From Bacillota bacterium (GTDB lineage: Bacteria; Bacillota; Clostridia; Christensenellales; CAG-138), in contig JBCFAY010000009.1 in the NCBI GenBank assembly GCA_038562375.1, positions 7,448 through 71,447 on the forward strand: DNA of 64,000 nt, written 5' to 3'. This document shows, one piece after another, positions 13,271 to 55,396 of this stretch. Position 1 is the first letter of the stretch. Every line of letters begins with the position of its first letter. The translations under genes were made by a program, and so were the position numbers. The notes under the pieces are model-generated. The model saw only the letters and a program-made list of their open reading frames with translations. It was not told the DNA's origin and ran no database searches.

Positions 13271-13273
13271 CGC

Positions 13274-30962: not shown

Positions 30963-32234
30963 TCACGCGTAAGCGCCGAATTCGCGGGTGGCGTCCGCCC
31001 ATGCCTTCACAAGCTCCGGCTTCGCCTCATCCAGCACGGTGTTGGTGCACATGATGAAGCCGCCGTCCCTTCCCACGGTGACGATCAAGTCTTTGGTAAA
31101 TTCACGGATTCTTTCGGGCGTTTCGATCTGGAGCATGGAGGACGGCATACCGCCGCAAAGGCATAGATTGCCGCCGACGATCTTTTTGGCAAGCTTGAGA
31201 TCGGTTTTATCAAACACGCCCAGCACCTTGCCCTTGGGCAGTTCGCAAAGGTACTCAAGGCGGCTGTCCCAGCATCCCTCGAAGAAAGGCATAGGGGTAA
31301 TGCCCGCGTCGATCAGGGTAAAGAGCATATGCTTTAAATCGGGCCAATAGAAGGTTTCAAACTGCCCGGCGGACATGAACCCGTCCCCGCCGCGGTGCAG
31401 TGGAATATAAATGCGGGGGCTTTCCTCCGGACGGCGTTCCAGAGCCCGCCTGCCCGCGAACAAGGCCGAATTTTCAAACAGGGACAGCAGCTTTGCCTGG
31501 GCACAGAGCAGCTTTTCAGGGACCTTCAGCATATCGGTAAGCGCGCCGCGCATCCCCCGCAAATAGCTTGAGATCGCATCGAAGGGAAGCACCACCACCG
31601 GCGGCGTGTACGAGGCCACGTAGCCCTCTTCCTCCATTTGCGCGTGGAAGGCGTCGAACCTTTCGCCCCACTCTTTGCCGACCTTCGACGCTTCCATAAT
31701 CGCCTGTATGGCCTTTTGGATGTCCGGGTCGGCAAACATGCCCACCATGAACCCCAAGGAGTACGAACCGGAAACGACTGTCTTCAGATTGGGGAGTTTA
31801 GAGAGGCCGGCCAGATTTTCATACAGCTCTGGCACAAACCGCCGGATGAGAAAATCCGAGGGATCGTCGATAAAAGCCTCGTAATCGGCCCGCTTCATGA
31901 ATTCCTTGTCGACAAACTGGTGGGCGGCGTTTTTATCGATGCCGTGGCCCGGCCATTTCATCTGCACATTGCCCAGCAGCTCATGAACCGGGCCGGGGGA
32001 CGCCACAGGGCTGTCGGCTTGGAAAAACATGTCCGGCCGATAGGCGCGGATAAACCGGCGATTGGCCTCAAGCCACTTGTCCTGGTCGTAGTACGCGTCC
32101 TCATACGCAATGCCGTAGATTCTGGCAGGCAGATAGCTCGCCTTCATAAACAGCGGTACGCGATCGGGCGTCCTTTGAAGCTCAATGGCGTCAAACACCC
32201 GTTTTTTTCTGTCGGACCAGCTTTCCCTGCCCAT
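30963..32234 (-). CDS. Uroporphyrinogen-decarboxylase (URO-D) family protein, probable substrate:corrinoid methyltransferase (module I)
   Basis: ORF 30963..32387. I moved the start to ATG 32234 (MGRESWSDRKK), which has GGAGG 9 nt upstream and lies 1 nt after the corrinoid protein stop. 423 aa, longer than MtaA-type URO-D proteins. The family call rests on context and overall pattern, not on a search. Confidence 0.65.
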   Translation of the reverse strand: MGRESWSDRKKRVFDAIELQRTPDRVPLFMKASYLPARIYGIAYEDAYYDQDKWLEANRRFIRAYRPDMFFQADSPVASPGPVHELLGNVQMKWPGHGIDKNAAHQFVDKEFMKRADYEAFIDDPSDFLIRRFVPELYENLAGLSKLPNLKTVVSGSYSLGFMVGMFADPDIQKAIQAIMEASKVGKEWGERFDAFHAQMEEEGYVASYTPPVVVLPFDAISSYLRGMRGALTDMLKVPEKLLCAQAKLLSLFENSALFAGRRALERRPEESPRIYIPLHRGGDGFMSAGQFETFYWPDLKHMLFTLIDAGITPMPFFEGCWDSRLEYLCELPKGKVLGVFDKTDLKLAKKIVGGNLCLCGGMPSSMLQIETPERIREFTKDLIVTVGRDGGFIMCTNTVLDEAKPELVKAWADATREFGAYA

Positions 32235-32235
32235 A

Positions 32236-32868
32236 TTACCGCGCCTCCATATGCTGTTTTGCCCAGGATACGGCGGCGACGGCGGTATCGGCATACGCGT
32301 CAGCGCCCGCGTACACGCGGATATCCTCGCCGACCGCGCCGCCGCCGACGATGATTTTAACTTTATCGCGCAGCCCCGCCCGTTCAATCGCGGCCACCGT
32401 CTCCTTCATTGAATCGAAAGTCAGGGTAAGCAAGCCGCTCATGCCGACGATGTCGGGCCGCACCTGTTCGATTTTTTGCACAAACGCTTCGGGCGGCACG
32501 TCTACCCCGAGGTCGTGAACCTCAAAGCCGTTCACCTCAAATAAGAAGCCGACAATGTCCTTGCCGATGTCGTGGATGTCGCCCTTCACGGTGCCGATGA
32601 CAAATTTGCCGAGGGATTTTCCGCCGTCCGAGGCCCGCATATGCGGCTTTAGAATAGCGCTGAGCGCTTTCATGATGTCTGCGCCGAGCAAAAGTTCGGG
32701 CAAAAAGTATTCCTTGGCATCAAATCGGCGGCCGATTTCGTCCATGGCCTTCTGGCACGCGCCCAGGATCTCGGCGGCGGGAACGCCCTGTTCAAGCAGG
32801 CGCTCCGCCTGGACGACCGCGTCGTCCTCTTCCTGTTCCACAATGGCGGCAATAAGCTCTTCAAACAT
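32236..32868 (-). CDS. Cobalamin-binding corrinoid protein (module I)
   Basis: An N-terminal helical cap plus a Rossmann B12-binding domain with the DxHxxG motif (GDIHDIGKDIV). 210 aa. Confidence 0.88.
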   Translation of the reverse strand: MFEELIAAIVEQEEDDAVVQAERLLEQGVPAAEILGACQKAMDEIGRRFDAKEYFLPELLLGADIMKALSAILKPHMRASDGGKSLGKFVIGTVKGDIHDIGKDIVGFLFEVNGFEVHDLGVDVPPEAFVQKIEQVRPDIVGMSGLLTLTFDSMKETVAAIERAGLRDKVKIIVGGGAVGEDIRVYAGADAYADTAVAAVSWAKQHMEAR

Positions 32869-33089
32869 AAAAATATCCTCCCAATATGGATGTGTGCCTT
32901 AAACGCGCCGGGTATGGCCGCAGCGCAAAGCTGCGTATCCATGCCGGGCGCCGATAAGGCTCAAAGCGGCGCAGGCTTTGTTGCGATTGCCGGGGATACG
33001 CGTTTCGGCAATCATACCGGATAAGCCCGGTATCACCTTCCAAATGGATGGATGCGTTTTCGGTATTCAGTTGTAAGGTAAAGGGCGCA

Positions 33090-33109
33090 CCCGCCGGAAA
33101 ACCGGCGGG
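33090..33109 (-). terminator. Possible terminator after the importer #2 binding-protein gene
   Basis: CCCGCCGG-aaaa-CCGGCGGG is an 8-bp stem. The downstream T tract on the minus strand is weak. Confidence 0.45.
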
Positions 33110-33147
33110 CACGCCTTGGCCTCGTCTATCACGAGATAACTTTAAGA

Positions 33148-34209
33148 TCAGCTCTCGGCCAGCAGTTTGACCTGCACTTCGCCGCTCTTGATCTTGGCGA
33201 CCTGATCCTCAAGCTTCGCGATCTGGTCGGCGGTGAGGACCTTTTCGTTGTAGGTGCCGAAGATGAATGCGCCGGTGGAGGTGTTGCCCACGATCTCGAG
33301 GGAGGGGCCGAACGTGCCGTTCACATAGGCCTGGATGGCGGTAAGAATGTTGGCCTTCATGTCGACCTGGCAGGACATCACGTAGGTATCCGGAGCCATT
33401 TCAGCCTGCTTGGGCGTGGTGACAACCACGAACTTTCCGGCTTCGGCAGCGGCCTGGATGACGCCGACACCCGCGCCCTGAGCGTACTGGAATACGCCGT
33501 CTGCGCCGCTTTCAAACACGGCGACGGTGGTCTCCTTGCCCTTGGCGGCATCGTCCATGCTGCCGATGTAGGACACGATGATTTCGGCGTTGGGGTTGGC
33601 GGCTTTCACGCCCTGCTCAAAGCCGAACTGGGTACGCTTCATGGACAGGCCCTCGATGGAGGAGACATAGCCCACCTTGTTGGCCTTGGTGATCAGGCCC
33701 AGCGCGTAACCGGCCATATAGCCCTGCTCTTCGCTCTTGACATCCATGCCGATCGCGTTGTCAAGGCGCAGGCTGCTCGAGGAAATGGCGAAGCTCACCT
33801 CGGGGAACTCGGGGGCGACGGCGGTCACGGCGTCGTTGAAGTCGTTGCCGTGGCACAGGATCAGGTTGTAGCCGCGGGCGGCATAGTCGCGGATGGCGGC
33901 TTCCATCTCGGCCACGGGCACGGCCTCGGTGTAGTCTCCCTGTATGCCCAGGGTCTTGATGGCTTCCTGCAGGCCGTTGTAGGCGGCCGCGTTGAAGCCG
34001 GCGTCATTGATGTTGCCGGGCAGCAGCAGGGCGACCTTGATGTCGGCCGCGTTTGCGGGGGTGTTTTCGGCGGAAGCGGTCTGCTCGGGGGCGGCGGTGT
34101 TTTCCGCAGGCGCGGCGCTGTCGGTGGGGGCGCTCCCGGTGTTGGTGCCGCAGGCGACCAGCGCCAGAGCCATTGCGAACGCCATCAAAAGTAATACAAT
34201 TTTCTTCAT
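33148..34209 (-). CDS. BMP-family ABC substrate-binding lipoprotein, importer #2
   Basis: Lipobox LVACG and the signature VALLLPGNINDAGFN. Confidence 0.88.
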   Translation of the reverse strand: MKKIVLLLMAFAMALALVACGTNTGSAPTDSAAPAENTAAPEQTASAENTPANAADIKVALLLPGNINDAGFNAAAYNGLQEAIKTLGIQGDYTEAVPVAEMEAAIRDYAARGYNLILCHGNDFNDAVTAVAPEFPEVSFAISSSSLRLDNAIGMDVKSEEQGYMAGYALGLITKANKVGYVSSIEGLSMKRTQFGFEQGVKAANPNAEIIVSYIGSMDDAAKGKETTVAVFESGADGVFQYAQGAGVGVIQAAAEAGKFVVVTTPKQAEMAPDTYVMSCQVDMKANILTAIQAYVNGTFGPSLEIVGNTSTGAFIFGTYNEKVLTADQIAKLEDQVAKIKSGEVQVKLLAES

Positions 34210-34277
34210 AACGATTCTCCTTCTGTTTATTATAAACCACGTATTATGGTTTATCGGCTTATACGGGGATGAAACCT

Positions 34278-35210
34278 TTATTTCTCATAGGGTTTGGCCA
34301 GCGCGGCGGGCCGCGCCGAGGACTTGCCCCTCACCAGCAGCACCACCAGCAGCGCCAGCACCATGGGTATGACCAGCAGCAGATCCGTGGGAATGGGCAC
34401 TCCGAAGGCCTGCAGCCGCATTTGCAGCGCGTTGCCCGCGCCGAATATGAGCCCGCCCGCGAGGACGCCCCAGGGATTCCATTGGCCGAGTATGACGCAG
34501 GCAACCGCCATGTAGCCGCGCCCGGCGGAGATATTGTCCACAAAGACGTTCATAAAGGACAGCGAAAGGATCACCCCGGCCACCGAAGCGCAGATCCACG
34601 CGAAGACGGACATGCCGAACTTCCACCGGATCACAGGGATGCCCATTGTGGCGGAGGCCTTGGGGTGCTCGCCGATGGAGCGAATCTTCAACCCCCATGT
34701 GGTCTTGTAGAGGATGAACCATACCGCGCCCACCATGATATAGGAAAGGTAGACCAGCGGCCCGTGGCTGAAGAGGATGCGCCCGATGACGGGGATTTGC
34801 GAAAGCAGGGGGACGGGCATATCGGGGATGTTCGGCACCACCAGCGGCACGTCCAAAACGCCCCAGATCATGCGGGACAGCAGCGAAGTGAGGCCGAGGG
34901 CCAGAATGTTCAGGCCCGTGCCCACAACGGCCTGGTGGGCCGCCAGCGTAACGACCGCCCAGCCGTAAAGCATGCCCAGCACGGCGCCCGCCAGAACGGC
35001 CACCGCAAGGCCCATGAACGCGCTCTGGAACAGGGAGGAGCCGAGCACGCCGAAGAAGGCGCCAAAGAGGATGCCGGCCTCGATGCCCAGGTTGAAGATG
35101 CCCGCGCGCTCGAGCATCAGTTCGCCGACGGCGGCCAGAACGATGGGGCTTGCCATGCGGACGACGGCGTAGAAAAAATCCGTGCTGAAAATGGAAATTA
35201 GGTTTTCCAT
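34278..35210 (-). CDS. ABC transporter permease, importer #2
   Basis: ORF 34278..35234. I moved the start to ATG 35210 (MENLISIF), which has an AAGGAGG RBS. Polytopic. Confidence 0.85.
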   Translation of the reverse strand: MENLISIFSTDFFYAVVRMASPIVLAAVGELMLERAGIFNLGIEAGILFGAFFGVLGSSLFQSAFMGLAVAVLAGAVLGMLYGWAVVTLAAHQAVVGTGLNILALGLTSLLSRMIWGVLDVPLVVPNIPDMPVPLLSQIPVIGRILFSHGPLVYLSYIMVGAVWFILYKTTWGLKIRSIGEHPKASATMGIPVIRWKFGMSVFAWICASVAGVILSLSFMNVFVDNISAGRGYMAVACVILGQWNPWGVLAGGLIFGAGNALQMRLQAFGVPIPTDLLLVIPMVLALLVVLLVRGKSSARPAALAKPYEK

Positions 35211-35211
35211 G

Positions 35212-36357
35212 CTATGCCACCTCCTTGGCCGCACCCTGGCGGCGGCTCATCTCGCGCACGGCCAGGTATCGGGGAAGCTTCATCAGCGCGGGGCTGACGG
35301 CCACAAAGAAGATGATGACCCCTGAGAGGACGAGGCTCAAGCTGGTGGGCAGATTGGCCGCGCGCACCATGCCGCCCCGCCCGGCCTTGAGCGCGCCGAA
35401 CATTATGGCGGCGATGACGACGCCGAGCGGATGCTTTTGTCCGAGCATGCAGACCGCCAGGGACTCGTAGCCGTAGTTGGCCAAGAAGCCCGCCCGCAGC
35501 CGGTACTGGCTGCCCATGATCTCCGAAGCGCCCGCCATGCCGGCGAGCCCGCCGGCAAGGAGCACGATGAGGATCTGCATCCCAAAGATATTGACGCCCG
35601 AGTGCCGCGCGACCACGGGGTTTTCGCCCAAAGCGCGCAGGTCGTGTCCGAAGGACGTGCGGTAGATCAGCACATAGGCCGCAAACGCTAGAACAAGGGC
35701 GATGAGAATGCCCGGGTACAGCCGCGTGCCGTCTAAAATGACGGGCAGGCGGGCGGTATCGGCAATCAGATAGGACTGGGGCGTATAGCCCGGGGGCTCA
35801 ACCATGGGACCTTTCACCAGATAGTTGATGATGCCGCCCGCGATATCGTTGAGCAGTATGGTGACGATCATGAAATTGGTGCCGTGTTTGGCAAAGAAGT
35901 AGCCCGGCACCGCCGCCCACAGCATGCCGCCGAAGAAACCGGCCATAAGGGTGACGGGGATGTGCAAAAAGGCGGGAATGCCCGGAAAACTGGTGGCCGC
36001 CATTGTGGCGAATATGCCGCCCATGATGATCTGCCCCTCGCCGCCCAGGTTGATGATGCCCGCGCGTGCGGCCAGCGCGATGCCGAGGCCCGTGAGCAGG
36101 AGCGGGGTGGCGGTGTTGAGGGTGTTGGCGATGTTGTAGGAGCCCACAAAGGCGCTGTCGAACAGGGCGGCGTAGGCCTCAAAGGGAGAGGCGCCCTGCG
36201 CCGTAATGATAATGCCCACCACGATCAGCGCCAGCAGTATGGCAGCGACGGGCACAAAAAAGTTGAAGATGCGCTCAAACTTGCGAACCAGCGTGTCGAG
36301 CCGGTCGTAGTTTGCGGACGATCCCGTTTTCACGGGGACGGTGGCGGTCTCATTCAT
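35212..36357 (-). CDS. ABC transporter permease, importer #2
   Basis: ORF 35212..36411. I moved the start to ATG 36357 (MNETATVP), which has a GAAGGAG RBS. Polytopic. Confidence 0.85.
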   Translation of the reverse strand: MNETATVPVKTGSSANYDRLDTLVRKFERIFNFFVPVAAILLALIVVGIIITAQGASPFEAYAALFDSAFVGSYNIANTLNTATPLLLTGLGIALAARAGIINLGGEGQIIMGGIFATMAATSFPGIPAFLHIPVTLMAGFFGGMLWAAVPGYFFAKHGTNFMIVTILLNDIAGGIINYLVKGPMVEPPGYTPQSYLIADTARLPVILDGTRLYPGILIALVLAFAAYVLIYRTSFGHDLRALGENPVVARHSGVNIFGMQILIVLLAGGLAGMAGASEIMGSQYRLRAGFLANYGYESLAVCMLGQKHPLGVVIAAIMFGALKAGRGGMVRAANLPTSLSLVLSGVIIFFVAVSPALMKLPRYLAVREMSRRQGAAKEVA

Positions 36358-36418
36358 ACAGACACTCCTTCGGCATGGTAAAAGAGGACGGACGGGGCTT
36401 GCAAAAACCAAGGAAAGC

Positions 36419-37936
36419 TCACGCGCTCTCGCTCCTTTTGCCCAGCATCATCAAACCGATCTGCTGCACCGAATCCTCGGTGGCGGGCACCTCGCCCATG
36501 ATCTCGCCCTTGAACAGGACGAGGATGCGGTCGCTGACGGCCAAAAGCTGCGAAATCTCGGTGGATACCAGCAGCACGGCCTTGCCCTCGTCCCGCTCGT
36601 TCACGAGGCGGGCGTGAATGAATTCGATGGCGCCGATGTCCAGGCCGCGGGTAGGATTGCAGGCGATGAGCAATTCGTGCTCGCGCTCCATCTCCCGGGC
36701 GATGACGATCTTCTGCTGGTTGCCGCCGCTCATGTTGCCGGCGCGGGTATCGGGCCCGTTGGCCTTGATGCCGTATCGGCCGATGATCTCTTTCACCCGC
36801 CGGTCGATGAATTTTCCCTGCAGGAATCCCTTCCTGGCGTAAGGCTCCTTCCATCTCTCCTTGAGTATAAAGTTGTCCCGCACCGTGAAGGAGAGGGCCA
36901 GCCCTTCGGTCTGCCGGTTGAAGGGGATATTGGAAACGCCGCTGTCCAAAACGGCTTTGGGTTTTTTACCGGTGATGTCCTTGCCGTTGACGCACACCGT
37001 GCCCGATACCACCGGGATGTGGCCCATTATGGCGCTGATGAGCTCCATCTGTCCGTTGCCGTCCACCCCGGCGATGCCCACCGTTTCCCCGGCGCGCACG
37101 TCGAAGGAGACGCCGTTGACCGCAAGTATGCCGTTGTCCGCCTTCACCTTCAGATCCCGCACCGACAAAACGGTATCCTTGGGGCAGCAGGCCCTGCGCT
37201 CGGGGCAGATGTTCACGTCCCGGCCCACCATCCTGTTGGCCAGATCGTGCTCGGTAGCGCCTTCCGCGGAAGCGGTGCCCATGAAGCGGCCGTCCCGCAG
37301 TATGCTGACCCGGTCGCAGAAGGCCATGACCTCCCGCATCTTGTGGGTGATGAAAATAACGGTGTTGCCCTGCCCCGCCCAGGCGCGCAGCACGGTGAAC
37401 AGTTCGTCCGTCTCCTGCGGGGTCAGCACGGAGGTCGGCTCATCCATGATGAGCACGCTCACGCCCTTATAGAGCGCCTTGACGATTTCCACGCGCTGCT
37501 GGTCTCCCACGCTAAGATCCTGGATCCTGGCGTCGGGATCGAGGCAAAGTCCGGTGCTGTGGGCGATCTCGACCACCCTGGCGCGCGCGGCGGCGGTGTT
37601 GAGGAGCGGTTCGCGCTCGAGCTTCGTACCCAGTATGATGTTCTCGAGCACCGTAAACTTCTGTATCAGCATGAAATGCTGGTGCACCATGCCGATGCCG
37701 TGCCCGATGGCGTCCTGCGGCCCGGAGATCGTCACAGGCTTGCCGTCGATGCGAATGCAGCCCTCGTCGGGATGCAAAAGCCCGTAGAGCATGTTCATAA
37801 GGGTCGTCTTCCCCGCCCCGTTCTCGCCGAGCAGCGCATGGATCTCACCCTTTTTAAAGCCGATGGTCACATCGTCGCAGGCGGTTACGCCGGGAAACCG
37901 CTTGGTGATGTGTTCCATCGAAATGTAGTCGGTCAT
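36419..37936 (-). CDS. ABC transporter ATP-binding protein with duplicated ATPase domains, importer #2
   Basis: GENGAGKTT, LSVGDQQRVEI and LSGGNQQK. 505 aa. Confidence 0.9.
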   Translation of the reverse strand: MTDYISMEHITKRFPGVTACDDVTIGFKKGEIHALLGENGAGKTTLMNMLYGLLHPDEGCIRIDGKPVTISGPQDAIGHGIGMVHQHFMLIQKFTVLENIILGTKLEREPLLNTAAARARVVEIAHSTGLCLDPDARIQDLSVGDQQRVEIVKALYKGVSVLIMDEPTSVLTPQETDELFTVLRAWAGQGNTVIFITHKMREVMAFCDRVSILRDGRFMGTASAEGATEHDLANRMVGRDVNICPERRACCPKDTVLSVRDLKVKADNGILAVNGVSFDVRAGETVGIAGVDGNGQMELISAIMGHIPVVSGTVCVNGKDITGKKPKAVLDSGVSNIPFNRQTEGLALSFTVRDNFILKERWKEPYARKGFLQGKFIDRRVKEIIGRYGIKANGPDTRAGNMSGGNQQKIVIAREMEREHELLIACNPTRGLDIGAIEFIHARLVNERDEGKAVLLVSTEISQLLAVSDRILVLFKGEIMGEVPATEDSVQQIGLMMLGKRSESA

Positions 37937-38090
37937 TTGGATTCCTCCCTCAGGTTCGATGAGGCGGCAGCCACGGGCTGTACGCCCTTTGCCCTGGCTG
38001 GGATCGGGTGTCTGAGGCTGTTTGATCGAACCCCGGCACCCCTGCCAAGTCAGTTGCGGTTTGGTTCGTTGAGCCGTATAAAACCTGTCC

Positions 38091-39812: not shown

Positions 39813-39824
39813 TGGGTTACTCCT

Positions 39825-42442: not shown

Positions 42443-42463
42443 TAGGCCGTGGTTGAAGGAGAT

Positions 42464-45127: not shown

Positions 45128-45128
45128 T

Positions 45129-46198: not shown

Positions 46199-47443
46199 AT
46201 GAGCAACCTCGTACTCAAAAACATCGACAAAATCGTCAGCGGCGACATCGTAAAAGGCATCCTACCCGGTGATACCGTCGTCGTACGCGACGGCCTGATC
46301 GCGGGCGTCGGATACGAAAAGTCGCTCGACATCTCGGGCATCGACACCGTGGTGGATGTCGACGGGCAGATCGTGTGCCCGGGCTTTATCGACTGCCATA
46401 TCCACAACACACTGGATGATTACGCTCCCCAGCGCGGCGCGGTGGGCTGCTATGCGGACGCACTGTACAGCGGCACCACCACCATGGTATCCGAAGGCGA
46501 ACAAGGCCCGGGCTGGCCCCGCTTCTACGACGACCCCATCGGCTGCAAAGCGGCCGCCATCCTTTCCAAGCGCGTCTTCGACCGCTTCCGTCCCGGCGGA
46601 GCGCTCAAGTTCCACGGCGGCGCGCTGGTATTGGTGCACGGCCTGACCGAGCAGGATTTCAAGGAGATGAGCGAGGCAGGCGTGTGGCTGATCGCCGAAA
46701 TCGGCGGCGGCGGGCTTTCCGATCCGGCCGAGGTCGCCCCGATGCTGGAATGGGCGAAGAAGTACAACTTCTTCTATTCGGTGCATTTGGCGCCTCCGTC
46801 CATCCCCGGTTCTTCCTGGGTTACGAGCAAGGAAATCCTCAAGCTGCGCCCGCACAAAGTCGCCCATACAAACGGCGGCTCGACCGGGGTTTCCTACGAT
46901 CACATCCAGCGCCTGATGGACGAATCCGACCTCCCGCTGGAATTGGTGGTCAACGGCAACTTCGTCAACTTCAACAAAATGCTCAAGCATATGGATCAGA
47001 AGGGCGAGCTGAGCCGCCTGGTATTCGGCAGCGACGCGCCCACCGGCCAGGCCTCCCTCTCCGGCGCCATCAACCGCGCCATCGTGAAAGCTTCCGCGCT
47101 CAACGATATCCCGGCCTGGAAGGCCATCGCCATGGCGACGGGGAATACGGCGGATCTGTACAAACTCAACGTGGGCAAGATCGAGGTCGGCCGCGCCGCG
47201 GACCTGCAGGTCATCGACAACCCGCCGGGTTCCGTCGGCGCCGATGCGCTCAAGGCGATCGAAAACGGCGATCCGTTCGGAAACTCCATGGTGATCGTGG
47301 ATGGCCGCATCATCGCGTTCCGCGGCAAGGATTCCCGCCCCACGGCCCGCTTGTGCAAGATCAATGGGGAAAAGGCCTTCGTGAGCGGTATCAACGAGCA
47401 CCTTTTCTTCCCGCCCCAGATCGGCAGGCACTACGAAGGGTAA
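46199..47443 (+). CDS. Metal-dependent amidohydrolase, enamidase-like cyclic amidase
   Basis: ORF 46190..47443. I moved the start to ATG 46199, which has AGGAG 8 nt upstream. LKNIDKIVSGDI...PGFIDCHIHN...GVWLIAEIGGGG resembles my recollection of enamidase-type enzymes. The subfamily assignment is unverified. Confidence 0.65.
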   Translation: MSNLVLKNIDKIVSGDIVKGILPGDTVVVRDGLIAGVGYEKSLDISGIDTVVDVDGQIVCPGFIDCHIHNTLDDYAPQRGAVGCYADALYSGTTTMVSEGEQGPGWPRFYDDPIGCKAAAILSKRVFDRFRPGGALKFHGGALVLVHGLTEQDFKEMSEAGVWLIAEIGGGGLSDPAEVAPMLEWAKKYNFFYSVHLAPPSIPGSSWVTSKEILKLRPHKVAHTNGGSTGVSYDHIQRLMDESDLPLELVVNGNFVNFNKMLKHMDQKGELSRLVFGSDAPTGQASLSGAINRAIVKASALNDIPAWKAIAMATGNTADLYKLNVGKIEVGRAADLQVIDNPPGSVGADALKAIENGDPFGNSMVIVDGRIIAFRGKDSRPTARLCKINGEKAFVSGINEHLFFPPQIGRHYEG

Positions 47444-47456
47444 CCGTCCAAGCGAA

Positions 47457-47484
47457 GCGCCGCGGGCCCAAAAGCCCGCGGCGC
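47457..47484 (+). other. Intercistronic 11-bp GC hairpin
   Basis: GCGCCGCGGGC-ccaaaa-GCCCGCGGCGC is followed by TAAAAAA, which is not a canonical terminator on either strand. Confidence 0.45.
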
Positions 47485-47509
47485 TAAAAAACCTTTAATG
47501 GAGGGAAAT

Positions 47510-48880
47510 ATGGCGACGCTGCTCATTAAAAATGCCGAAGCAATCATAACATGCAATCAGGACGATCAGATCCTCTATGGAGCGAATATCCTGTGCGAGG
47601 ACGGCGTGATCCGCTACATCGGGCCCGAGAGCCGGCCCGCCGACAAAGTCATTGACGCGTCGGGCTGCTTCGTGTATCCTGGCCTCATAAACACCCACCA
47701 CCATCTATACCAGACCTTTACGCGCAACCTGCCGCAGGTGCAGCGGATGGAGCTTTTCCCCTGGCTGGTGACGCTCTACGAGATCTGGCGCTATCTCGAC
47801 GACGAATGCATCTACTACAGTTCGCTCACCGGCATGGGCGAGCTGGTCAAATACGGCTGTACGACGGTGATGGACCATCACTATGTCTTTCCCAAAACGG
47901 GCTCGTCCGGGTTTATCGACCGGCAGTTCGAGGCCGCGGACGCGCTGGGCGTGCGCTTTACGGCCACCCGCGGCAGCATGTCCCGCGGCAAGAGCGACGG
48001 CGGCCTGCCGCCCGACGACCTGGTGCAGGACCTCGACACCATATTGGCCGACTGCGAGCGGCTGGTGAAAAAGTTCCACGATCCCGCCCGATACTCCATG
48101 CATCAGGTGGCGATCGCCCCGTGCTCGCCCTTCAGCGTGACCACGCAGCTCCTTAAGGAATCCGCTGAGTTGGCCCGCAGGCTTGGCGTACGCTTGCACA
48201 CGCACCTTTGCGAGACCAAGGACGAGGAAGCGTTTTGCCTCGACAAGGTATGCATGCGCCCCTTGGCTTACATGGAGGAATGCGGCTGGGTCGGCAGCGA
48301 CGTCTGGTATGCCCACGGCATCCATTTCAACGACGAGGAGCTAAAGCTCCTCGCTAAGACGCAGACCGGCGTGGCCCATTGCCCCGCTTCCAATATGAAG
48401 CTCGCCTCGGGCGTATGCCGCGTCCCCGAAATGCTCGAGCTGGGCGTTCCGTTGGGCCTGGCCGTCGACGGCAGCGCCAGCAACGACTGCTCCAACCTGA
48501 TGGCGGAAATCCGCGCATCATACCTGATGCACCGCCTGGCCTACAGCGCCAAGGCCCCGACGGGCTACGATATCCTGAAAATGGCCACCCGCGGCAGCGC
48601 GAAGGTGCTGGGGCGGGATGATATCGGCGCACTGGCGGTCGGCATGGCGGCGGACCTGTTTATGGTGGATGCCCAGATGCTGGAGCTGGTGGGTACGCAG
48701 TTCGATCCCGGCTGTCTGTTCGGCACGGTGGGGTATAATCGCCCGGCAAAAAGCGTCGTCGTCGCGGGCCGCGAGGTCGCCCGGGACGGAGTACTGCTCA
48801 ACATCGACGAAACCGCGGTTCAACGCCGCGCCAACGCGCTCATGCGCAATATGTTGAAATCCGGAGGAGCTATCGCATGA
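47510..48880 (+). CDS. ATZ/TRZ-family amidohydrolase, 8-oxoguanine-deaminase-like
   Basis: ORF 47498..48880. I moved the start to ATG 47510 (GGAGGG RBS). Metal ligand motifs GLINTHHHLYQT, HTHLCET, YAHGIHF and AVDGSASND. Confidence 0.75.
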   Translation: MATLLIKNAEAIITCNQDDQILYGANILCEDGVIRYIGPESRPADKVIDASGCFVYPGLINTHHHLYQTFTRNLPQVQRMELFPWLVTLYEIWRYLDDECIYYSSLTGMGELVKYGCTTVMDHHYVFPKTGSSGFIDRQFEAADALGVRFTATRGSMSRGKSDGGLPPDDLVQDLDTILADCERLVKKFHDPARYSMHQVAIAPCSPFSVTTQLLKESAELARRLGVRLHTHLCETKDEEAFCLDKVCMRPLAYMEECGWVGSDVWYAHGIHFNDEELKLLAKTQTGVAHCPASNMKLASGVCRVPEMLELGVPLGLAVDGSASNDCSNLMAEIRASYLMHRLAYSAKAPTGYDILKMATRGSAKVLGRDDIGALAVGMAADLFMVDAQMLELVGTQFDPGCLFGTVGYNRPAKSVVVAGREVARDGVLLNIDETAVQRRANALMRNMLKSGGAIA

Positions 48881-49623
48881 TTACCGACCTCAACGCCTAC
48901 ACCTGGGAAGAGCTTGCCGTCATGGATCGGGAAAAGGCGGTCTGCCTTTTGCCGATCAGCGCATTGGAGCAGCACGGGAAGCACCTGCCGCTTGGCACGG
49001 ACGACTTTATCCTCGCCGCCGCGCTCGAGGGCGTGCGCCGTGACCCGCGCCTGACGGCGGATTATCTCCTGCTGCCGACGCTGCATTACGGCAACAGCGT
49101 CGAGCATCTGGATTTTTTCGGAACCATGAGCCTTGGATGCGCCACCATCGTGAATATCGTCGAGGATATCCTTCGCTGCATGGCCGACCAGGGGTTTAAA
49201 AAGCTCGCTATCATCAACTCCCATGGAGGGAACTCGGCGATCTTCCAGGCGTATTCGCAGGAATGGCAGCAAAAGTTCGGCATACGGGTGTATCATGCAA
49301 ACTTCTACGCTTCGGGCTTCTTTAGAGAAGCGGCCTCTCTGCTGGAAACGCCTTTGTCTACGGACGTACATGCGGGGGAACTCGAAACCTCGGTGCTGCT
49401 GTATAAAATGCCCCACTTGGTACGGCAGGAAAAAATCACGGCCGCAGAGGATATCTATATCACGCTGAGCGACTATTACAGCGGATGGCTGACCAGCGAA
49501 TACTCGCCCGGCAACGGGACGATCGGCGTACCCACGAGGGCCGACGCGCAAAAGGGAAAAGCCGTCCTCGACTTTATTCAGAACAAATTGGCAAACTGCC
49601 TGTTCCAAATTGCAAACGAGTAA
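48877..49623 (+). CDS. Creatininase-family amidohydrolase
   Basis: LLPISALEQHGKHLPLGTD and INSHGGN motifs. 4-nt overlap with the preceding gene. Confidence 0.75.
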   Translation: MITDLNAYTWEELAVMDREKAVCLLPISALEQHGKHLPLGTDDFILAAALEGVRRDPRLTADYLLLPTLHYGNSVEHLDFFGTMSLGCATIVNIVEDILRCMADQGFKKLAIINSHGGNSAIFQAYSQEWQQKFGIRVYHANFYASGFFREAASLLETPLSTDVHAGELETSVLLYKMPHLVRQEKITAAEDIYITLSDYYSGWLTSEYSPGNGTIGVPTRADAQKGKAVLDFIQNKLANCLFQIANE

Positions 49624-49765
49624 GATATAATTGTCCAATCACCATTGATTCCCATAGGCTGCGGCGCTTTGCCGCTGCCGGCGGCAATCAAAAAAGCCCT
49701 TGGGAGGCGGGTGCCGCAGCCGCCGGGGCTTGCTTCCCGGGCCGCGGCATGTACGAATCGAGCGA

Positions 49766-49794
49766 AAAGCCTTGCCGCGCAAGGCTTTCCTTTC
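49766..49794 (+). terminator. Probable terminator of the importer #3 / amidohydrolase operon
   Basis: AAAGCCTTG-ccgcg-CAAGGCTTT followed by CCTTTC. Confidence 0.55.
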
Positions 49795-49917
49795 AGGAAC
49801 GCCCCCTACCGACGGTGCGGCAGTTCCTGAACAAACGGCGCGGCTGTTTTTCCGACAAACTTAGGCTGCGGCGGAACCCGCGGCCGGATATTGGAGCAGG
49901 GTAACCGGAGTATCTGT

Positions 49918-50661
49918 ATGGAGAATCTGACGAAACTTGAACGCGCGAAGTCCCTGTGTGAACGTACATTCGACGAACTGCGCAACGCGATCCTGGCCAT
50001 GGCGCCCGGAGAGAACAAGCTCCCCTCTGAAGATGAACTTTCCAGGGCCCTTGGGGTGAGCCGTTCCACCATTCGCGAAGCGGTTAAGCAGCTGCAGATG
50101 GAGGGCGCAATTACAAAGATCCAGGGGAGGGGCACTTTTGCGCACCCCTCCGTCTTTCATATTCAGAATCGGGTGGACCTGCATCCGGATTTTTACGCCT
50201 TGCTTTCCCGGGAACACGAGCGTGTCGTCTTGGACGTGGAGCCCCTCGGCGTATCCACGCCCAGCGAATCGTATCTGCGCGTCTTCCCCAACGCCGTTGC
50301 CGGCGAACCGGTGTACGTCATGGTATGGCGATACTATGCGGACGATATCCTGATGATATTCGGAACCTTTGAGTTCCCCACCCGCTTTTTGCGCCGGATC
50401 CCGGCGCCCGATTTCCATGTGAACAATCTGCCCGAATTCTCCAAAGCCTATCTGAATGAGGATATCACCTACTGCGCCATGCAGCTTCGCTGCGGTTACA
50501 GCGAAACGGCGGCGCGGCAGTTCGGCATCCCGGAAAAAGTGCCTATGCAATGCTGGAAAGAAGTGATCTACGACGTAGGGGATCACGCCGTCGGCTATTG
50601 CCGCTTCTTTTTGCACCCCGACCATATGATTATGTCGTTGATCGCGCATTTCGACATCTGA
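49918..50661 (+). CDS. GntR-family transcriptional regulator, HutC/UTRA subfamily
   Basis: ORF 49891..50661 (TTG). ATG 49918 is preferred. HTH KLPSEDELSRALGVSRSTIREAVKQLQMEGAITKIQGRGTFA. Confidence 0.8.
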   Translation: MENLTKLERAKSLCERTFDELRNAILAMAPGENKLPSEDELSRALGVSRSTIREAVKQLQMEGAITKIQGRGTFAHPSVFHIQNRVDLHPDFYALLSREHERVVLDVEPLGVSTPSESYLRVFPNAVAGEPVYVMVWRYYADDILMIFGTFEFPTRFLRRIPAPDFHVNNLPEFSKAYLNEDITYCAMQLRCGYSETAARQFGIPEKVPMQCWKEVIYDVGDHAVGYCRFFLHPDHMIMSLIAHFDI

Positions 50662-50954: not shown

Positions 50955-52616
50955 TTAAAATCCGAGGCATTTGACAAAGAGCTTATCGAAATCCTCATAT
51001 GTGGACAGTTCGATGACCGATATGGTCTTTACAAGCGCCTCCATTTCGCGGCGGTAGCCCCGGTTCATGAGGAAGGCCTTCCCGCCCGACTGCGAGGTGT
51101 TGCCGATAAAGCTGATCCGGCCCTCGAACTCCTCGGGAAGCATGCCGATGTTCAAAAGGCTTTTTGCCCTCAGATGATAACCGAACGATCCCGCGATCAG
51201 CACGCTCCCGACCTCCCGCGCCCGCACGCCCTGGCTTGACATCAGATACTCGATTCCGGCGCGAACGGCGCCCTTTGCAAGCTGCACCTGGCGGATATCC
51301 TTCTGGGTAAGGTATACCTCGTCGACCAGGCGGAACGCCGGCTTGCCCTGATACGGCGTGAGCCGGGCTTTGAGCTTCTCGGGCAGGTCGCTGCCCTCGG
51401 GCTTGACAAAGCGGCCGTTCTTATCGATGACCTTGTTCGCCACCAGCTCCCCGACAATATCGAGCAGCCCGCTGCCGCAGATGCCCACGGGGGCCGCGTC
51501 GCCGATGGTGCGGATGACGATGTCCGCATCTCGGGTGATTTCAAAGTATTCGATCGCCCCGTTTGAGGCGCGCATACCGAACGTGATGTTCATGCCCTCG
51601 AAGGCCGGCCCGGCGGCCGTCGACGTGGCCGACAGCGCCCCGTTTTTGCCGATCGCCATTTCGCCGTTCGTGCCGATATCTACAAACAGGGTCGTATCGG
51701 GCCGCCTGTGCAGCTGGGAGGCGAGGATGCCGGAGGTGATGTCCGGCCCGACATACGCGGATATGATGGGCGGAAAATAGACAAGCCCATATCGGCTGAT
51801 GTTTACGCCCAGCGTTTCGGCGGGAAAGTGACAACTGCCGTACAGCTGCGGCGTATAGGGGAACTGGCCGAGCGAATAGGGATTGATCTTGGCGGCCAGA
51901 TGGATCATCGTCGTGTTGCCGCTGAAAACCGCCTCGTAGATGTTCTCGCTCGGTACGCCGGACGAGACGCAAAGCTCCGCCGCCATACGGTTGATCTCTT
52001 TGGTTACCGCATCGTGCATCTCCTGAAGGCCTTCCTCGTCGGAGGCGATCTTGATGCGCGAGAGCACATCCTGCGCGTACAGACTCTGCGGATTGAGCGC
52101 CGAGCAAGTCGCGAGCTCCCGGCCCTTATTTAGGTCGACGACCGCCGCCACCAAAGTCGTGGTGCCGATATCTACCACGAGGCCGTACAGCCGGTCCGTC
52201 GTATCGCCTTTCTCCTCGCAAAGAAGCGTTTCTCCGGCATAGACGCGCGTCACGCCGTCCCGGTAGGCCTTCATGACGGCGCTGTCCGGCGTTACCTCGA
52301 AGCTTTGGCCCTCGGATACGATCTTGAGCGTCTTGTTCTTCTGGCCCGAGAGCGTCGTGACGTCGACATCGCCGAGCACCTCGGTCATGCAGGCGAGCAC
52401 ATACCCTTGCCCGGCCTCATCCGGGGGCAGCGGCTTTTTGACGAGCACGCGGTCAAGCTGCTTCGGATCGATCTTGACCTTGCATTTCCCGCAGGTCCCG
52501 CCCGCGTTGCAGGGCGATTCGATCACGACCCCGCACTCGCGCGCCACGTCCAGCAGCCTATCGCCCTTATCGGCGGTCTGCACGATATTCTCTCTGATAA
52601 AACGAACGTTTGCCAT
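50955..52616 (-). CDS. Reductive activator of corrinoid enzymes (RACo-type: N-terminal 2Fe-2S ferredoxin plus ASKHA ATPase domain)
   Basis: SPCNAGGTCGKCKVKI is a ferredoxin-like Cys cluster. ASKHA phosphate motifs VDIGTTTLVAAVVDL and VDIGTNGEMAIG. 553 aa. Confidence 0.8.
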   Translation of the reverse strand: MANVRFIRENIVQTADKGDRLLDVARECGVVIESPCNAGGTCGKCKVKIDPKQLDRVLVKKPLPPDEAGQGYVLACMTEVLGDVDVTTLSGQKNKTLKIVSEGQSFEVTPDSAVMKAYRDGVTRVYAGETLLCEEKGDTTDRLYGLVVDIGTTTLVAAVVDLNKGRELATCSALNPQSLYAQDVLSRIKIASDEEGLQEMHDAVTKEINRMAAELCVSSGVPSENIYEAVFSGNTTMIHLAAKINPYSLGQFPYTPQLYGSCHFPAETLGVNISRYGLVYFPPIISAYVGPDITSGILASQLHRRPDTTLFVDIGTNGEMAIGKNGALSATSTAAGPAFEGMNITFGMRASNGAIEYFEITRDADIVIRTIGDAAPVGICGSGLLDIVGELVANKVIDKNGRFVKPEGSDLPEKLKARLTPYQGKPAFRLVDEVYLTQKDIRQVQLAKGAVRAGIEYLMSSQGVRAREVGSVLIAGSFGYHLRAKSLLNIGMLPEEFEGRISFIGNTSQSGGKAFLMNRGYRREMEALVKTISVIELSTYEDFDKLFVKCLGF

Positions 52617-53641
52617 CAGCTTCCCACCTTTACCGCGCCCGTCATCGCCTGGATATTCCCTACCGGCGTCGTCGTGCTCAGCCCGCAGGCGGGCGCGATG
52701 ATGTCCACGCCGCCCGCGACAAGCCTTTGTACGCGGCCGACGATCTTCTCCGACTCGCCGCCTTGCAAAAGGAATGTGCTCACGTTCCCCATGGTGGTCA
52801 GCGCCGGATAGTTATTCTTCAATTGCTCCAGGCTCACGAGCGCGTCCGTGCTGACGGCGTTCGCGTGCAGTTGTTCCATATAGGACTCCACCGAGCTCAG
52901 CTTTCCGCAGATGTGGATGATGACGGGCGCGCCCATGGCGTGTACGGCGTCCGCGAGCTTGTTAAGATACCGCACTGCGTATTCTTCGAACATCTTTGGG
53001 CCTAGAATCTCGCCCGTGGCGGTCGGATCGGCGATGGTGATGAGCGTTGCGCCGTTGCCGATCAGAAGCCGGGCGTAATCGATCAGATGATCTGTTACAT
53101 AGTCGACCACCCGGTGCGCATTGGCCGGGTCCTTGCGCAGTTCCTTCAAAAACTGCATCGGGTCCACGATCGAAGCCGCCGTGCTGATCGGCCCCGTGAC
53201 GCTTCCGATGACAGGGATGTCGGGATATTTTTTTGAAAGCGCATGCACGGCATCGACGACCACGCCCACGCGCCTGTTCTGCGCCATTTTCCCGATGTGC
53301 TTGAATCCCACCTGCGAAACGGACGGATAGGGCTCCCGGGCGATCTTGGGCTCGCATTCGAGCGTGCCGTAATCGATGTCGCTGCCGAGCACCTCGGCTT
53401 CGACCGTCATGCAGAAAGGAAGGCCGAGATTCTCAAAGCCCGTCATTTCATAGACATCGCCCGCGATATCCGCCATCAGACCCGCGTCGTGATGACCGGC
53501 AGGCAGCGTATGGCCCGTCTGGTTCATCACGTCCACCAGGGCCGAGTTGAGCATGCCTCCCGGACAGATGACCGGCGGGCGGTCCACGCCTGCCTTGCAA
53601 AGCACCCTGTCGAGCCGTTCCTTCGGGCTGAATACATCCAT
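52616..53641 (-). CDS. MtaA/CmuA-like URO-D-family methylcobamide methyltransferase (module II, MT2 position)
   Basis: 341 aa, the size of MtaA. Its stop (52616-52618) overlaps the activator gene's start codon by one base. The family call is from context and general pattern only. Confidence 0.7.
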   Translation of the reverse strand: MDVFSPKERLDRVLCKAGVDRPPVICPGGMLNSALVDVMNQTGHTLPAGHHDAGLMADIAGDVYEMTGFENLGLPFCMTVEAEVLGSDIDYGTLECEPKIAREPYPSVSQVGFKHIGKMAQNRRVGVVVDAVHALSKKYPDIPVIGSVTGPISTAASIVDPMQFLKELRKDPANAHRVVDYVTDHLIDYARLLIGNGATLITIADPTATGEILGPKMFEEYAVRYLNKLADAVHAMGAPVIIHICGKLSSVESYMEQLHANAVSTDALVSLEQLKNNYPALTTMGNVSTFLLQGGESEKIVGRVQRLVAGGVDIIAPACGLSTTTPVGNIQAMTGAVKVGS

Positions 53642-53670
53642 CGCTCATCCCTTCCTTTCTGCGGCGCTTC

Positions 53671-54339
53671 TTAAACGGCGGAAGGCAGGGTTTGATCGCC
53701 CACCAGCCGCTTTGCGAGCCAGACGGCTTCCGCCGCGTTTACGGCATAGCCGTCCGCGCCGATTTTGTTCGCGAACGCCTGGGATACCGGGCCGCCGCCC
53801 ACGATCACCTTGAATCGATCCCGCACATTTTGCTGATGAAGAAGCTTGATGACCTTGCTCATGGCGTCCATGCTGGTGGTCATCAGCGTCGATATCCCGA
53901 TGATGTCCGCGCCGATCTCAATCGCGCGCTCTACAAAAACGCTTGGCGGCACGTCCCTGCCGAGATCCGTTACCGCAAATCCCGAGGCTTCCAGCATGAG
54001 CTTGACGAGGTTCTTCCCGATATCGTGCGTATCGCCCTGCACGACCCCGATAACGACCTTGTAGCGTTCGGACGCCTCGGTATTCCTTAAATGCGGCTTC
54101 AATACCTCGAGCCCCGCGTTCATCGCCTCCGAGCACAGCAGCAGTTCGGGAACGAAGTATTCTTCCTCGTCAAACAGCTTTCCGGCGCGCGTCATGCCGT
54201 CCGAAAGGCCCTTATCGATCGCCTCGAATGCGTCCATTTGCGCGCTTACGGCTTCCTCGGCACCGGCGACGGCAGCCTCCTCATCCATGTTTACCACGGC
54301 GTCCGACAGCTTTTGATAGATTTTTTCTTTATTAAGCAT
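53671..54339 (-). CDS. Cobalamin-binding corrinoid protein (module II)
   Basis: DxHxxG motif GDTHDIGKNLV, a helical cap, and GGGPVSQ. 222 aa. Confidence 0.88.
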   Translation of the reverse strand: MLNKEKIYQKLSDAVVNMDEEAAVAGAEEAVSAQMDAFEAIDKGLSDGMTRAGKLFDEEEYFVPELLLCSEAMNAGLEVLKPHLRNTEASERYKVVIGVVQGDTHDIGKNLVKLMLEASGFAVTDLGRDVPPSVFVERAIEIGADIIGISTLMTTSMDAMSKVIKLLHQQNVRDRFKVIVGGGPVSQAFANKIGADGYAVNAAEAVWLAKRLVGDQTLPSAV

Positions 54340-55396
54340 AATGATCTCCTTTCATATTCTTGTATTCTGTGGGGATGGATCGGGCGGTGTCCGTCATAAC
54401 CTTTACGTTTTCTATGGGTACGTCCGGCGGCAGATCGCAGCCCGGCATGAGGATGTACCCTTCATGGGAGCCTACGTTTTGTGCGCATTGGAGGCTAACC
54501 TCGCGCACCTTCTCCTGTGATCCCTGGAGCATAACCGAAACCGGATCGATATTTCCGGCAAAAGCAATCCGTCCTGCGCAAGAATCCCTCACGGCGCTTA
54601 GCGATACCTTGGAATCGATGGAGATCGCGTTTGCGCCGGTTTGCAGAAACAGCGGCAGATTATTCGTCGTATTTCCGCACACATGGAGCATCGTGGCCGG
54701 GACTTTGCCAGAGACCGCGGAGAAAAGCCGGATGTTGCTCGGCAATACGAATTCCTCGAATTGTTTGGGGGAAATCAGGTCGCCGGAGGCCGTCATCTCC
54801 GAGGCGCGAAGAAGCTCGACACCCGCGTCTATGAACAGCTGCCAGTATTTTAAACACACTTCCCGCGTGAATTCCAGCACATGCAGCAGCGCCGGTTTAT
54901 CCTTGAGCAGCAGGCGCACAAGCAGCTTGATGCCGAGCATCTGGCCCGCCAGCGTAAACGGCCCCCACTGGCCGCTGCCGACGAGGAACTCCTGCCCGCA
55001 TTCCCGTGCAAGAAGCTTTGCCGTTTCCACGATCATGCCGATATCGGGATCGGATTCGATGCGGGAAATATCAAGGCTGTCGATTTCCGCGGCGTTATTG
55101 AGCAGCGGCCGCTCGATTTCCGGCGTAAATCCCGGCTCGTCGTAACGCACATCGCCGCCGAGCGCTTTGATGATGATATTGTTGCAGCCCGAGCAAGCCC
55201 AGAGGATATCGGAGCGGATTTCACGGTAAGTATCGGCGATGATGTCTGCCGAGGTCTGTGCGCCTGCGCGAATGGAATCGCCGATCGACATATTGCGGCG
55301 CTTAAACAGCCAAACGCCGCCGGATAGTATCGCCGCCGGCAGACGTTCGGTTTTCTCACCCCGGAGCGCATTCAGCGCAGTCGCTTTGCCGTTCAT
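54332..55396 (-). CDS. URO-D-family protein, probable substrate:corrinoid methyltransferase (module II, MT1 position)
   Basis: ORF 54332..55549. I moved the start to ATG 55396 (MNGKATALN), which has a GGGAGGG RBS. 8-nt overlap with the corrinoid protein start. Confidence 0.65.
   Translation of the reverse strand: MNGKATALNALRGEKTERLPAAILSGGVWLFKRRNMSIGDSIRAGAQTSADIIADTYREIRSDILWACSGCNNIIIKALGGDVRYDEPGFTPEIERPLLNNAAEIDSLDISRIESDPDIGMIVETAKLLARECGQEFLVGSGQWGPFTLAGQMLGIKLLVRLLLKDKPALLHVLEFTREVCLKYWQLFIDAGVELLRASEMTASGDLISPKQFEEFVLPSNIRLFSAVSGKVPATMLHVCGNTTNNLPLFLQTGANAISIDSKVSLSAVRDSCAGRIAFAGNIDPVSVMLQGSQEKVREVSLQCAQNVGSHEGYILMPGCDLPPDVPIENVKVMTDTARSIPTEYKNMKGDHYA

Follow-up and report, generated by a model that had tools for sequence, protein, structure and literature searches.

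Corrinoid methyl transfer beside uptake and hydrolysis of purine-like heterocycles in a Christensenellales genome: probably a mosaic of four units

The DNA analysed here (the window) is a stretch of 64,000 nucleotides with a GC content of 57.5%, from a metagenome-assembled genome (MAG) of a Bacillota bacterium of the Christensenellales (assembly GCA_038562375.1, contig JBCFAY010000009.1, positions 7,448 to 71,447). Between positions 30963 and 55396 it contains an island of 22 genes, in which two corrinoid methyltransferase modules bracket two BMP-type ATP-binding cassette (ABC) importers and a set of hydrolases. A preliminary description of the island offered as one explanation that all of these blocks act together in the uptake and breakdown of a methylated heterocycle, such as a purine, a pterin or a creatinine-like compound. 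Our analysis points instead, with a probability of roughly 65%, to a mosaic of four units, each of which has an evolutionary history of its own. By their gene neighbourhoods in other genomes these are unit A, a corrinoid protein (CP) and a methyltransferase of 423 amino acids (aa) (30963-32868, minus strand); unit B, a LacI regulator, an adenine-deaminase-family hydrolase and BMP importer #2 (33148-40838, minus strand); unit C, BMP importer #3 with enamidase-like, 8-oxoguanine-deaminase-type and creatininase-family hydrolases and a GntR regulator (41357-50661, plus strand); and unit D, two MtaA-like methyltransferases, a CP and the activase RACo (50955-55396, minus strand).

Co-conservation was checked from three seeds: the 423-aa methyltransferase, the adenine-deaminase-like (ade-like) hydrolase and the enamidase-like protein. 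The blocks are not co-conserved across genomes, an outcome which the preliminary description had itself named as speaking against a single pathway. Its caveat, that the blocks may be independent operons lying side by side, is the better-supported reading: unit C stands alone in L168, L169, L171 and L173, unit B is independent of A and D in each of the 80 further loci examined, and unit A occurs without B in approximately 45 loci. Only the junction between B and A recurs elsewhere, and among the examined loci it does so in L001 alone.

Unit C is inherited independently of the rest of the island. The gene order Bmp-ATPase-permease-permease-enamidase-deaminase-creatininase is kept in L171/L172 (92% identity in the enamidase-like protein), L168 (82%), L173/L174 (78%) and L169 from Desulfitibacter (72%). 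The GntR gene (49918-50661, plus strand; Pfam), which is the last of the operon in the window, also closes it in L171/L172 and L168; in L173/L174 it is found upstream of Bmp in divergent orientation, and L169 lacks it. The housekeeping surroundings differ from copy to copy (gmk/rpoZ; asnB/gyrB; FTHFS/lepA/tRNA synthetases; cbi genes), and no homologue of LacI/ade, corrinoid protein, URO-D methyltransferase or RACo is found within 10 kb of the copies in L168, L169, L171 and L173. Inheritance of unit C alone in four lineages, with flanks wholly unlike those of the window even at 92% identity, argues against the blocks forming one pathway. That unit C is an autonomous and widely distributed operon is a strong conclusion; its substrate would be a base or nucleoside analogue.

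Unit B shows the same independence in a wider range of organisms. Relatives of its hydrolase, with 62-75% identity, were found in 80 genomes, most of them of aerobes, and the 80 loci were fetched. The carriers include Oscillospiraceae, Pseudoflavonifractor, Lachnospiraceae, Paenibacillus, Brevibacillus, Lysinibacillus, rhizobia and Paraburkholderia/Burkholderiales. Within 10 kb of the hydrolase none of the 80 loci contains a homologue of a corrinoid protein, a URO-D methyltransferase (MtaA-like proteins included), RACo, enamidase or creatininase. The regulator is LacI in Bacillota and LysR in Proteobacteria, and Burkholderiales add a porin. LacI (48-56% identical) adjoins the hydrolase in 21 of the 23 Bacillota loci among the 80; the contig of L006 ends just past the hydrolase, and the LacI proteins of L008 and L010 have only weak similarity (approximately 30%). 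LacI orthologues of 45-56% identity adjoin the hydrolase in 25 other loci altogether. In 48 of the 80 loci the hydrolase is followed by a DUF6198 (YitT-like) membrane protein of approximately 235 aa (e.g. L017 9983-12625, L069 9929-12522). Just four of the 80 (L007, L023, L027 and L061) retain the BMP importer that belongs to the unit; counting L001, importer orthologues downstream of the ade-like gene are 48-83% identical to importer #2. Taken together, these contexts indicate that unit B is a self-sufficient module, made up of a regulator, a transporter and a single hydrolase.

The content of the island itself is as the preliminary description had it. A list of open reading frames (ORFs) and scans with Pfam and NCBIfam reproduce all 22 genes, with the same coordinates, order, strands and families. 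The chosen start codons are preceded by Shine-Dalgarno sequences, including a ribosome-binding site for the start at 55396, and no oxygenase is present among the domains found in the island by these scans. The general theme, uptake and hydrolysis of purine-like heterocycles beside anaerobic corrinoid methyl transfer, also holds at the level of families. One entry needs revision: the URO-D methyltransferase gene given as 424 aa is real, its product is 423 aa long, and its family can be narrowed to a methyltransferase I (MTI) of the MtvB/OdmB/VdmB/MtoB/CdmB type. This protein (MEL7609270.1) and the adenine-deaminase-family protein (MEL7609276.1) are encoded on the same 145-kb contig.

The hydrolase of unit B (38091-39812, minus strand; 573 aa) combines Amidohydro_1 and Adenine_deam_C domains. 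It shares the HxH amidohydrolase barrel and the C-terminal domain with adenine deaminases such as Atu4426 (3NQB) and E. coli Ade, and its metal-binding motif, D79-A-H81-x-H83, is invariant in an alignment of 11 sequences. Unlike those enzymes, it falls below both adenine deaminase equivalogs (TIGR01178, 187 bits against a cut-off of 472; PRK10027, 149 bits against 768), and it matches 3NQB itself at only 117 bits over residues 16-532. It therefore belongs to a subfamily of its own, 62-75% identical from Bacillota to Burkholderiales, rather than to the ADE equivalog. Membership of the YerA/Bh0637-type N6-methyladenine deaminases was also rejected: the C-terminal 194 residues have no match to the YerA structure 9JQL at E<=10, their only match being 3NQB (E 0.002), and the protein is distant from the ADE equivalogs, though its chemistry may be analogous. 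The minimal gene context of the hydrolase suggests that a single enzyme converts a modified purine to a normal one. A literature search on this subfamily and on DUF6198 found nothing relevant.

Upstream of the hydrolase lies its LacI-family repressor (39825-40838, minus strand; Pfam). Downstream, importer #2 (33148-37936, minus strand; Pfam) reads in transcription order as a double ABC_tran ATPase (36419-37936), two BPD_transp_2 permeases (35212-36411 and 34278-35234) and the Bmp binding protein (33148-34209). The nearest relatives of the binding protein in the PDB are Lbp (7X0R), BmpA, the purine-binding 3S99 and AtzT.

A conserved palindrome is the candidate operator of the ade-linked LacI. 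In the window its copy, GTGAAACGTTTAAG (40883-40896), lies 45 nt upstream of the LacI start codon. In 11 of 26 orthologous loci the form GTTAAWCGWTTAAC precedes LacI, at a distance of 22-54 nt (207 nt in L061); loci with the palindrome are L011, L013, L015, L016, L018, L019, L022, L026, L034 and L061. L001 contains two copies, at 362-375 and 1530-1543, before LacI and before an operon that begins with a PCC-domain gene followed by the ade-like gene. That PCC-domain protein (PF03479, 139 aa; L001 1618-2037) lies between LacI and the ade-like gene, has an operator copy of its own and has no counterpart in the window. No copy lies upstream of the CP-methyltransferase pair of unit A in the window or in L001; shared LacI control of this pair was rejected, since in both genomes the operator stands before LacI/ade and not before CP.

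The border between B and A is marked by a strong, terminator-like hairpin of 14 pairs, 12 of them G-C (33084-33115, minus strand), which lies 33 nt past the stop codon of the importer #2 Bmp gene. Its T-tail is weak (CTTTACCTTA), and approximately 215 nt separate it from the CP start codon. The spacer between Bmp and CP is also long in L001 (370 nt); there a scan of the gene strand finds no terminator, and one possible hairpin with a long loop was read by eye.

Unit A consists of two genes that are separated by 1 nt. The 423-aa methyltransferase (30963-32234, minus strand) is a UroD-superfamily protein with a weak match to Pfam URO-D (37 bits), and its sole PDB match at E<=0.01 is CdmB (9RUI, E 1.7e-34, 122 bits). 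CdmB is the chloromethane methyltransferase I of Acetobacterium dehalogenans and is grouped with the O-demethylases MtvB, OdmB, VdmB and MtoB (PMC13222342). Several uncharacterised MTI clades have also been described, among them a 'clade I' which contains WP_148136635.1 of Formimonas warabiya and has no characterised member (PMC13222342). Since that protein (P0009 in our set) is an orthologue of the 423-aa methyltransferase, with 53% identity, unit A is an MTI of an uncharacterised clade together with its corrinoid protein. The cognate protein, CP210 (32236-32868, minus strand; 210 aa), ends beside the MTI start codon. It is TIGR02370-like (160 bits), its DxHxxG motif reads GDIHDIGK, and like the corrinoid protein of unit D (CP222) it carries B12-binding_2 and B12-binding domains. 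No methyltransferase II (MTII) or RACo that would belong to unit A lies within approximately 18 kb of it; unit D carries an MtaA-like methyltransferase of 341 aa (MT341) and RACo. An alignment of five regions upstream of CP-MTI pairs revealed no conserved regulatory element. The GntR/UTRA regulator gene at 16304-17035 was considered as a regulator of the pair and set aside; it is approximately 25% identical to the MTI-linked regulators of Thermincola and Formimonas.

Unit D is a complete corrinoid methyl-transfer module of four genes (50955-55396, minus strand; Pfam, NCBIfam, PDB). It comprises an MtaA-like methyltransferase of 354 aa (54332-55396; Pfam URO-D), CP222 (53671-54339; B12-binding_2 and B12-binding), MT341 (52616-53641; NF004889, 375 bits against a cut-off of 244) and RACo (50955-52616; RACo_C_ter, Raco_middle, Fer2). 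The two methyltransferases score 204 and 255 bits with Pfam URO-D, and MtaA (4AY7) is the best PDB match of both. The MTII and RACo genes of L001, with identities of 26-39%, were rejected as orthologues of unit D, which thus has no orthologue in L001; this is a further point against a single pathway.

Unit C has a promoter-like site of its own (41152-41180, 11 of 12 positions matched). Importer #3 (41357-46076, plus strand; Pfam) consists of Bmp (41357-42442), ATPase (42508-44049) and two permeases (44042-45127 and 45129-46076); the nearest PDB relatives of its binding protein are 4P98, 7X0R, 3S99 and AtzT (6PI5). Importers #2 and #3 share with PnrA of T. pallidum, Brucella 3S99 and AtzT the arrangement of Bmp, two BPD_transp_2 permeases and a fused double ATPase, and the nearest solved relatives of their binding proteins include purine-base binders.

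The importer is followed by three hydrolases. The enamidase-like amidohydrolase (46199-47443, plus strand; 414 aa) is a full-length homologue of the enamidase Ena (2VUN, E 4e-95) of nicotinate fermentation in Eubacterium barkeri; it has 641 homologues at E<=1e-30, many of them 80-95% identical. No other domain family of nicotinate fermentation appears in domain scans of the window or of L167-L174, in which no nicotinate-pathway protein was used as a query. Since other nicotinate genes are not nearby and the protein is always paired with a creatininase-family gene, its substrate is likely to be a different cyclic amide. It also often lies beside nucleoside-cleaving enzymes or a BMP importer. 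L167 (10001-20055) and L170 (7324-16334) contain the enamidase-creatininase pair without a BMP importer; the neighbours there are PNP_UDP_1 phosphorylases, PfkB, ADP-ribosylglycohydrolase, NADAR, RbsD, ureidoglycolate lyase and ABC transporters of the ribose or SBP_bac_8 type. This company of nucleoside enzymes suggests a pathway that starts from a nucleoside.

The second hydrolase (47498-48880, plus strand; 460 aa) is an ATZ/TRZ aminohydrolase. Its score passes the 8-oxoguanine-deaminase equivalog NF006055 (584 bits against a cut-off of 532), and it matches 3HPA (420 bits) and 7WW2 (410 bits) over its full length. These scores place it in the promiscuous AtzB/8-oxoguanine deaminase/NdmH cluster, whose members include N2,N2-dimethylguanine hydrolases active on methylated bases (PMC13054789); this would suit a pathway for a methylated compound. 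Its operon also encodes a BMP importer, the enamidase-like protein and the creatininase-family protein, an arrangement that has not been described for the characterised members of the cluster. A look-up of the exact sequence returned no record. The third hydrolase (48877-49623, plus strand) belongs to the creatininase family (PF02633, 201 bits). It lies below the creatininase equivalog TIGR04448 (99 bits against 235), and its best PDB matches reach only E 1e-17. The family also includes MftE and formamidases such as ArfB that act on ring-opened purines (PMC9478397). The reductive uric-acid pathway was considered for unit C and set aside; its description (PMC12507026) names neither an enamidase nor a creatininase-family enzyme.

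If the island is a mosaic, each unit can be given a function of its own. Unit B would be an autonomous operon under LacI repression, in which importer #2 takes up an adenine-like analogue; in the presence of this compound LacI would leave its operator, and the binuclear-metal hydrolase would replace the substituent at C6 to yield a standard purine. In aerobes the ade-like enzyme would work with just the small DUF6198 membrane protein and a regulator. Unit C, regulated by GntR, would import a guanine-like base or nucleoside analogue through its BMP-type system; the AtzB/8-oxoguanine-deaminase-type enzyme would remove the exocyclic amine, and the enamidase-like and creatininase-family hydrolases would then open cyclic amide or formamide bonds.

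Units A and D would be the ordinary corrinoid methyl-transfer equipment of a methylotrophic anaerobe. Systems of three or four components are known from Moorella (MtvABC), Acetobacterium (Odm/Vdm), Methermicoccus (MtoABCD) and A. dehalogenans (CdmBCA) (PMC13222342). Unit A resembles them in having a UroD-superfamily MTI of the same clade and an adjoining B12-binding corrinoid protein with a DxHxxG motif, and unit D is a canonical methyltransferase-CP-methyltransferase-RACo set. By analogy with these systems, MTI would methylate the Co(I) form of the corrinoid protein, an MtaA-like methyltransferase would unload methyl-Co(III) to a one-carbon (C1) carrier, and RACo would re-reduce Co(II). Unit D could supply MTII and RACo to unit A. 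There are also differences. Unlike the Cdm system, the MTI of the window is distant from CdmB (122 bits) and falls in clade I, and neither MTII nor activase adjoins unit A; unlike the Thermincola cluster, which has a pterin-binding MTII, unit D has MtaA-like URO-D proteins for both of its methyltransferases.

A closely related explanation, to which we give somewhat less than even odds, is that A and D are O-demethylase or halomethane systems (for methoxyaromatics, methanol, methylthiols or chloromethane) with no link to the importers, and that the junction in L001 is synteny without function. The clade of the unit A MTI and the canonical layout of unit D fit this explanation. So does the company kept by MTI orthologues: Thermincola and Formimonas carry theirs in classic methyltransferase/CP/MTII/RACo clusters, and Formimonas, a clade-I carrier, degrades haloalkanes (PMC13222342). 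In both, and in an ENA contig, the order is GntR/UTRA-CP-CP-MTI without BMP importer or hydrolase, and the Thermincola cluster continues with a pterin-type MTII, RACo and DUF1638. The surroundings of further MTI relatives support the mosaic as well. One relative sits among other methyltransferase/CP pairs, again without BMP importer or hydrolase, and of 40 metagenome loci above 6 kb in length with MTI relatives of 38-51% identity, not one contains an ade-like or Bmp homologue. The O-demethylase or halomethane explanation is compatible with the mosaic and largely contained in it. However, the lack of a characterised clade-I member counts against it, and it does not explain why the junction has survived a shift from 33% to 58% GC while the other flanks changed.

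Several observations weigh against the mosaic, and most of them concern L001. The nearest homologue of the window MTI (60%) lies there, in the order LacI-PCC-ade-like-ATPase-permease-permease-Bmp-CP-MTI, which is colinear with the minus strand of the window. Apart from the PCC gene, the order and orientation of eight genes are common to both, with protein identities of 45-69% and different outer flanks. GC content is 33.5% in L001 against 57.5% in the window, so the shared order spans a deep divergence, as functional coupling would produce. The L001 cluster continues straight on along the same strand with genes for a thioredoxin-like protein, a URO-D-type MTII, CobW, RACo, a second corrinoid protein and an MtmB homologue. 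Neither in the window nor in L001 does unit A come with its own regulator or transporter, and in the window it also lacks its own MTII and activase. Unit C, which is demonstrably mobile, separates D from B and is read from the other strand; without it, D, B and A would be contiguous and co-directional. Finally, three BMP importers, a 5'-nucleotidase and two corrinoid modules are clustered within 45 kb.

The recurrence of the B-A junction in the divergent L001 leaves some room for a coupling of A and B, with D as a helper and C as an unrelated insertion, which we regard as tentative and rather unlikely. In such a coupling, importer #2 would bring in a methyl-bearing adenine-like compound and MTI would move an O-, S- or N-methyl group to the Co(I) form of CP210. 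An MtaA-like MTII (MT341 in the window, a 333-aa URO-D protein in L001) would pass the methyl group to tetrahydrofolate, RACo would re-reduce the cobalt, and the ade-family hydrolase would turn the demethylated base into a standard purine, or act first. Two members of the adenine-deaminase family, YerA and Bh0637, do act on N6-methyladenine (PMC12133300). Several observations speak against coupling. The junction is known from only two instances. In L007, whose importer is nearest to that of the window (73-83%), Bmp ends in a terminator and is followed by an unrelated lipoprotein gene. In Pseudoflavonifractor, where unit B is flanked by an integrase, an exonuclease or a PALP enzyme, A is missing, and it is likewise missing from each of the 80 other ade-like loci, whether of aerobes or of anaerobes. 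MTI orthologues mostly occur without B; in a distance tree and identity matrix the L001 MTI shares 66-69% identity with the stand-alone proteins of Thermincola and Formimonas but only 60% with that of the window, so there is no separate MTI subfamily specific to unit B. The hairpin and spacer between Bmp and CP, and the position of the LacI operator, also speak against coupling, as does the fact that characterised members of the MTI clade use methoxylated aromatics or halomethanes and not N-heterocycles (PMC13222342).

More doubtful still is the specific proposal that a methylated adenine-like heterocycle (e.g. 6-methoxy-, N6-methyl- or 2-methylthio-purine) enters through the BMP importer and is demethylated by the clade-I MTI and its corrinoid protein. 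Its methyl group would then reach C1 metabolism through an MtaA-like MTII and RACo, while the hydrolase would salvage the purine ring. A literature search on corrinoid demethylation of methylxanthines or methylpurines found nothing relevant.

The single pathway of the preliminary description is very improbable and, because the blocks are not co-conserved, largely refuted: the blocks do lie within 25 kb without an oxygenase, and all of the hydrolases come from families that act on N-heterocycles, but B and C are under different regulators and are read from different strands, and C has a promoter-like site to itself.

Other features of L001 and of the window can be mentioned briefly. The last two genes of L001 (16335-18327) encode a corrinoid protein and the homologue of MtmB, the monomethylamine methyltransferase (PF05369, 297 bits), which is cut by the contig end; its 443 codons contain no in-frame stop, and it therefore appears to lack pyrrolysine. 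A 7TM-PAS-GGDEF gene lies directly upstream of LacI in the same locus. In the window, paralogues with HisKA_7TM-GAF-GGDEF-EAL architecture bracket the island: a tandem pair immediately to its left (24346-27420 and 27434-30502, minus strand) and a third, inverted copy immediately to its right (59992-63099, plus strand), all approximately 1020-1035 aa long and with pairwise identities of 39-47%. A 144-aa ORF (30568-31002, minus strand) shares 40 nt with the 3' end of the MTI gene. Neither Pfam nor NCBIfam gives a match to it, and none of the fetched loci contains a homologue; it is perhaps not a gene and was excluded from the system.

Further to the left lies a third BMP-type ABC importer (10793-15560, minus strand), so that the window contains three paralogous BMP importers within 36 kb. 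It is accompanied by the GntR/UTRA gene (16304-17035), a PF06189 5'-nucleotidase (17323-18240) and an RNase T-like exonuclease (18291-19124). The three importer sets are only 33-48% identical to each other, and each is tied to a different set of hydrolases or regulators. Also to the left, and unrelated to the island, are a FeoB iron transporter (20179-22323) and a run of plus-strand genes (1566-9220), among them those for chorismate mutase/prephenate dehydratase (6831-7985) and for a fusion of shikimate dehydrogenase and kinase (7976-9220). A scan of the window with Rfam at gathering thresholds found no family. Among 14 related loci scanned with Rfam for ligand clues, only a tRNA and, in L169, a cobalamin riboswitch before cbi genes were found, neither of them relevant here.

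The main lesson is a negative one: contiguity in this MAG is not sufficient to define a pathway. Each unit belongs to a known kind; a coupling of A and B, were it confirmed, would be novel. Such a coupling would add nucleobase-type compounds to the methoxyaromatics, methylamines, betaines and halomethanes from which anaerobic corrinoid systems harvest methyl groups, and would link products of RNA and DNA turnover to acetogenic C1 metabolism. If the substrate were a methylated adenine-like compound, the system would be the first to demethylate a nucleobase-type compound by corrinoid chemistry, and an uncharacterised MTI clade would gain a substrate class.

The ade-like subfamily is uncharacterised and is unusually well conserved from gut Oscillospiraceae to Paenibacillus, rhizobia and Paraburkholderia, and a regulator and a transporter always accompany it. 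Its presence in culturable aerobes, such as Brevibacillus parabrevis, Paenibacillus or Ensifer (approximately 70% identical), makes the hydrolase a tractable target. Unit C, an operon of seven to eight genes that is widespread in anaerobes, is probably the basis of a route, not yet described, by which a guanine-like compound is hydrolysed. Whatever the outcome for a coupling of A and B, this subfamily and the unit C operon are worthwhile targets for enzymology.

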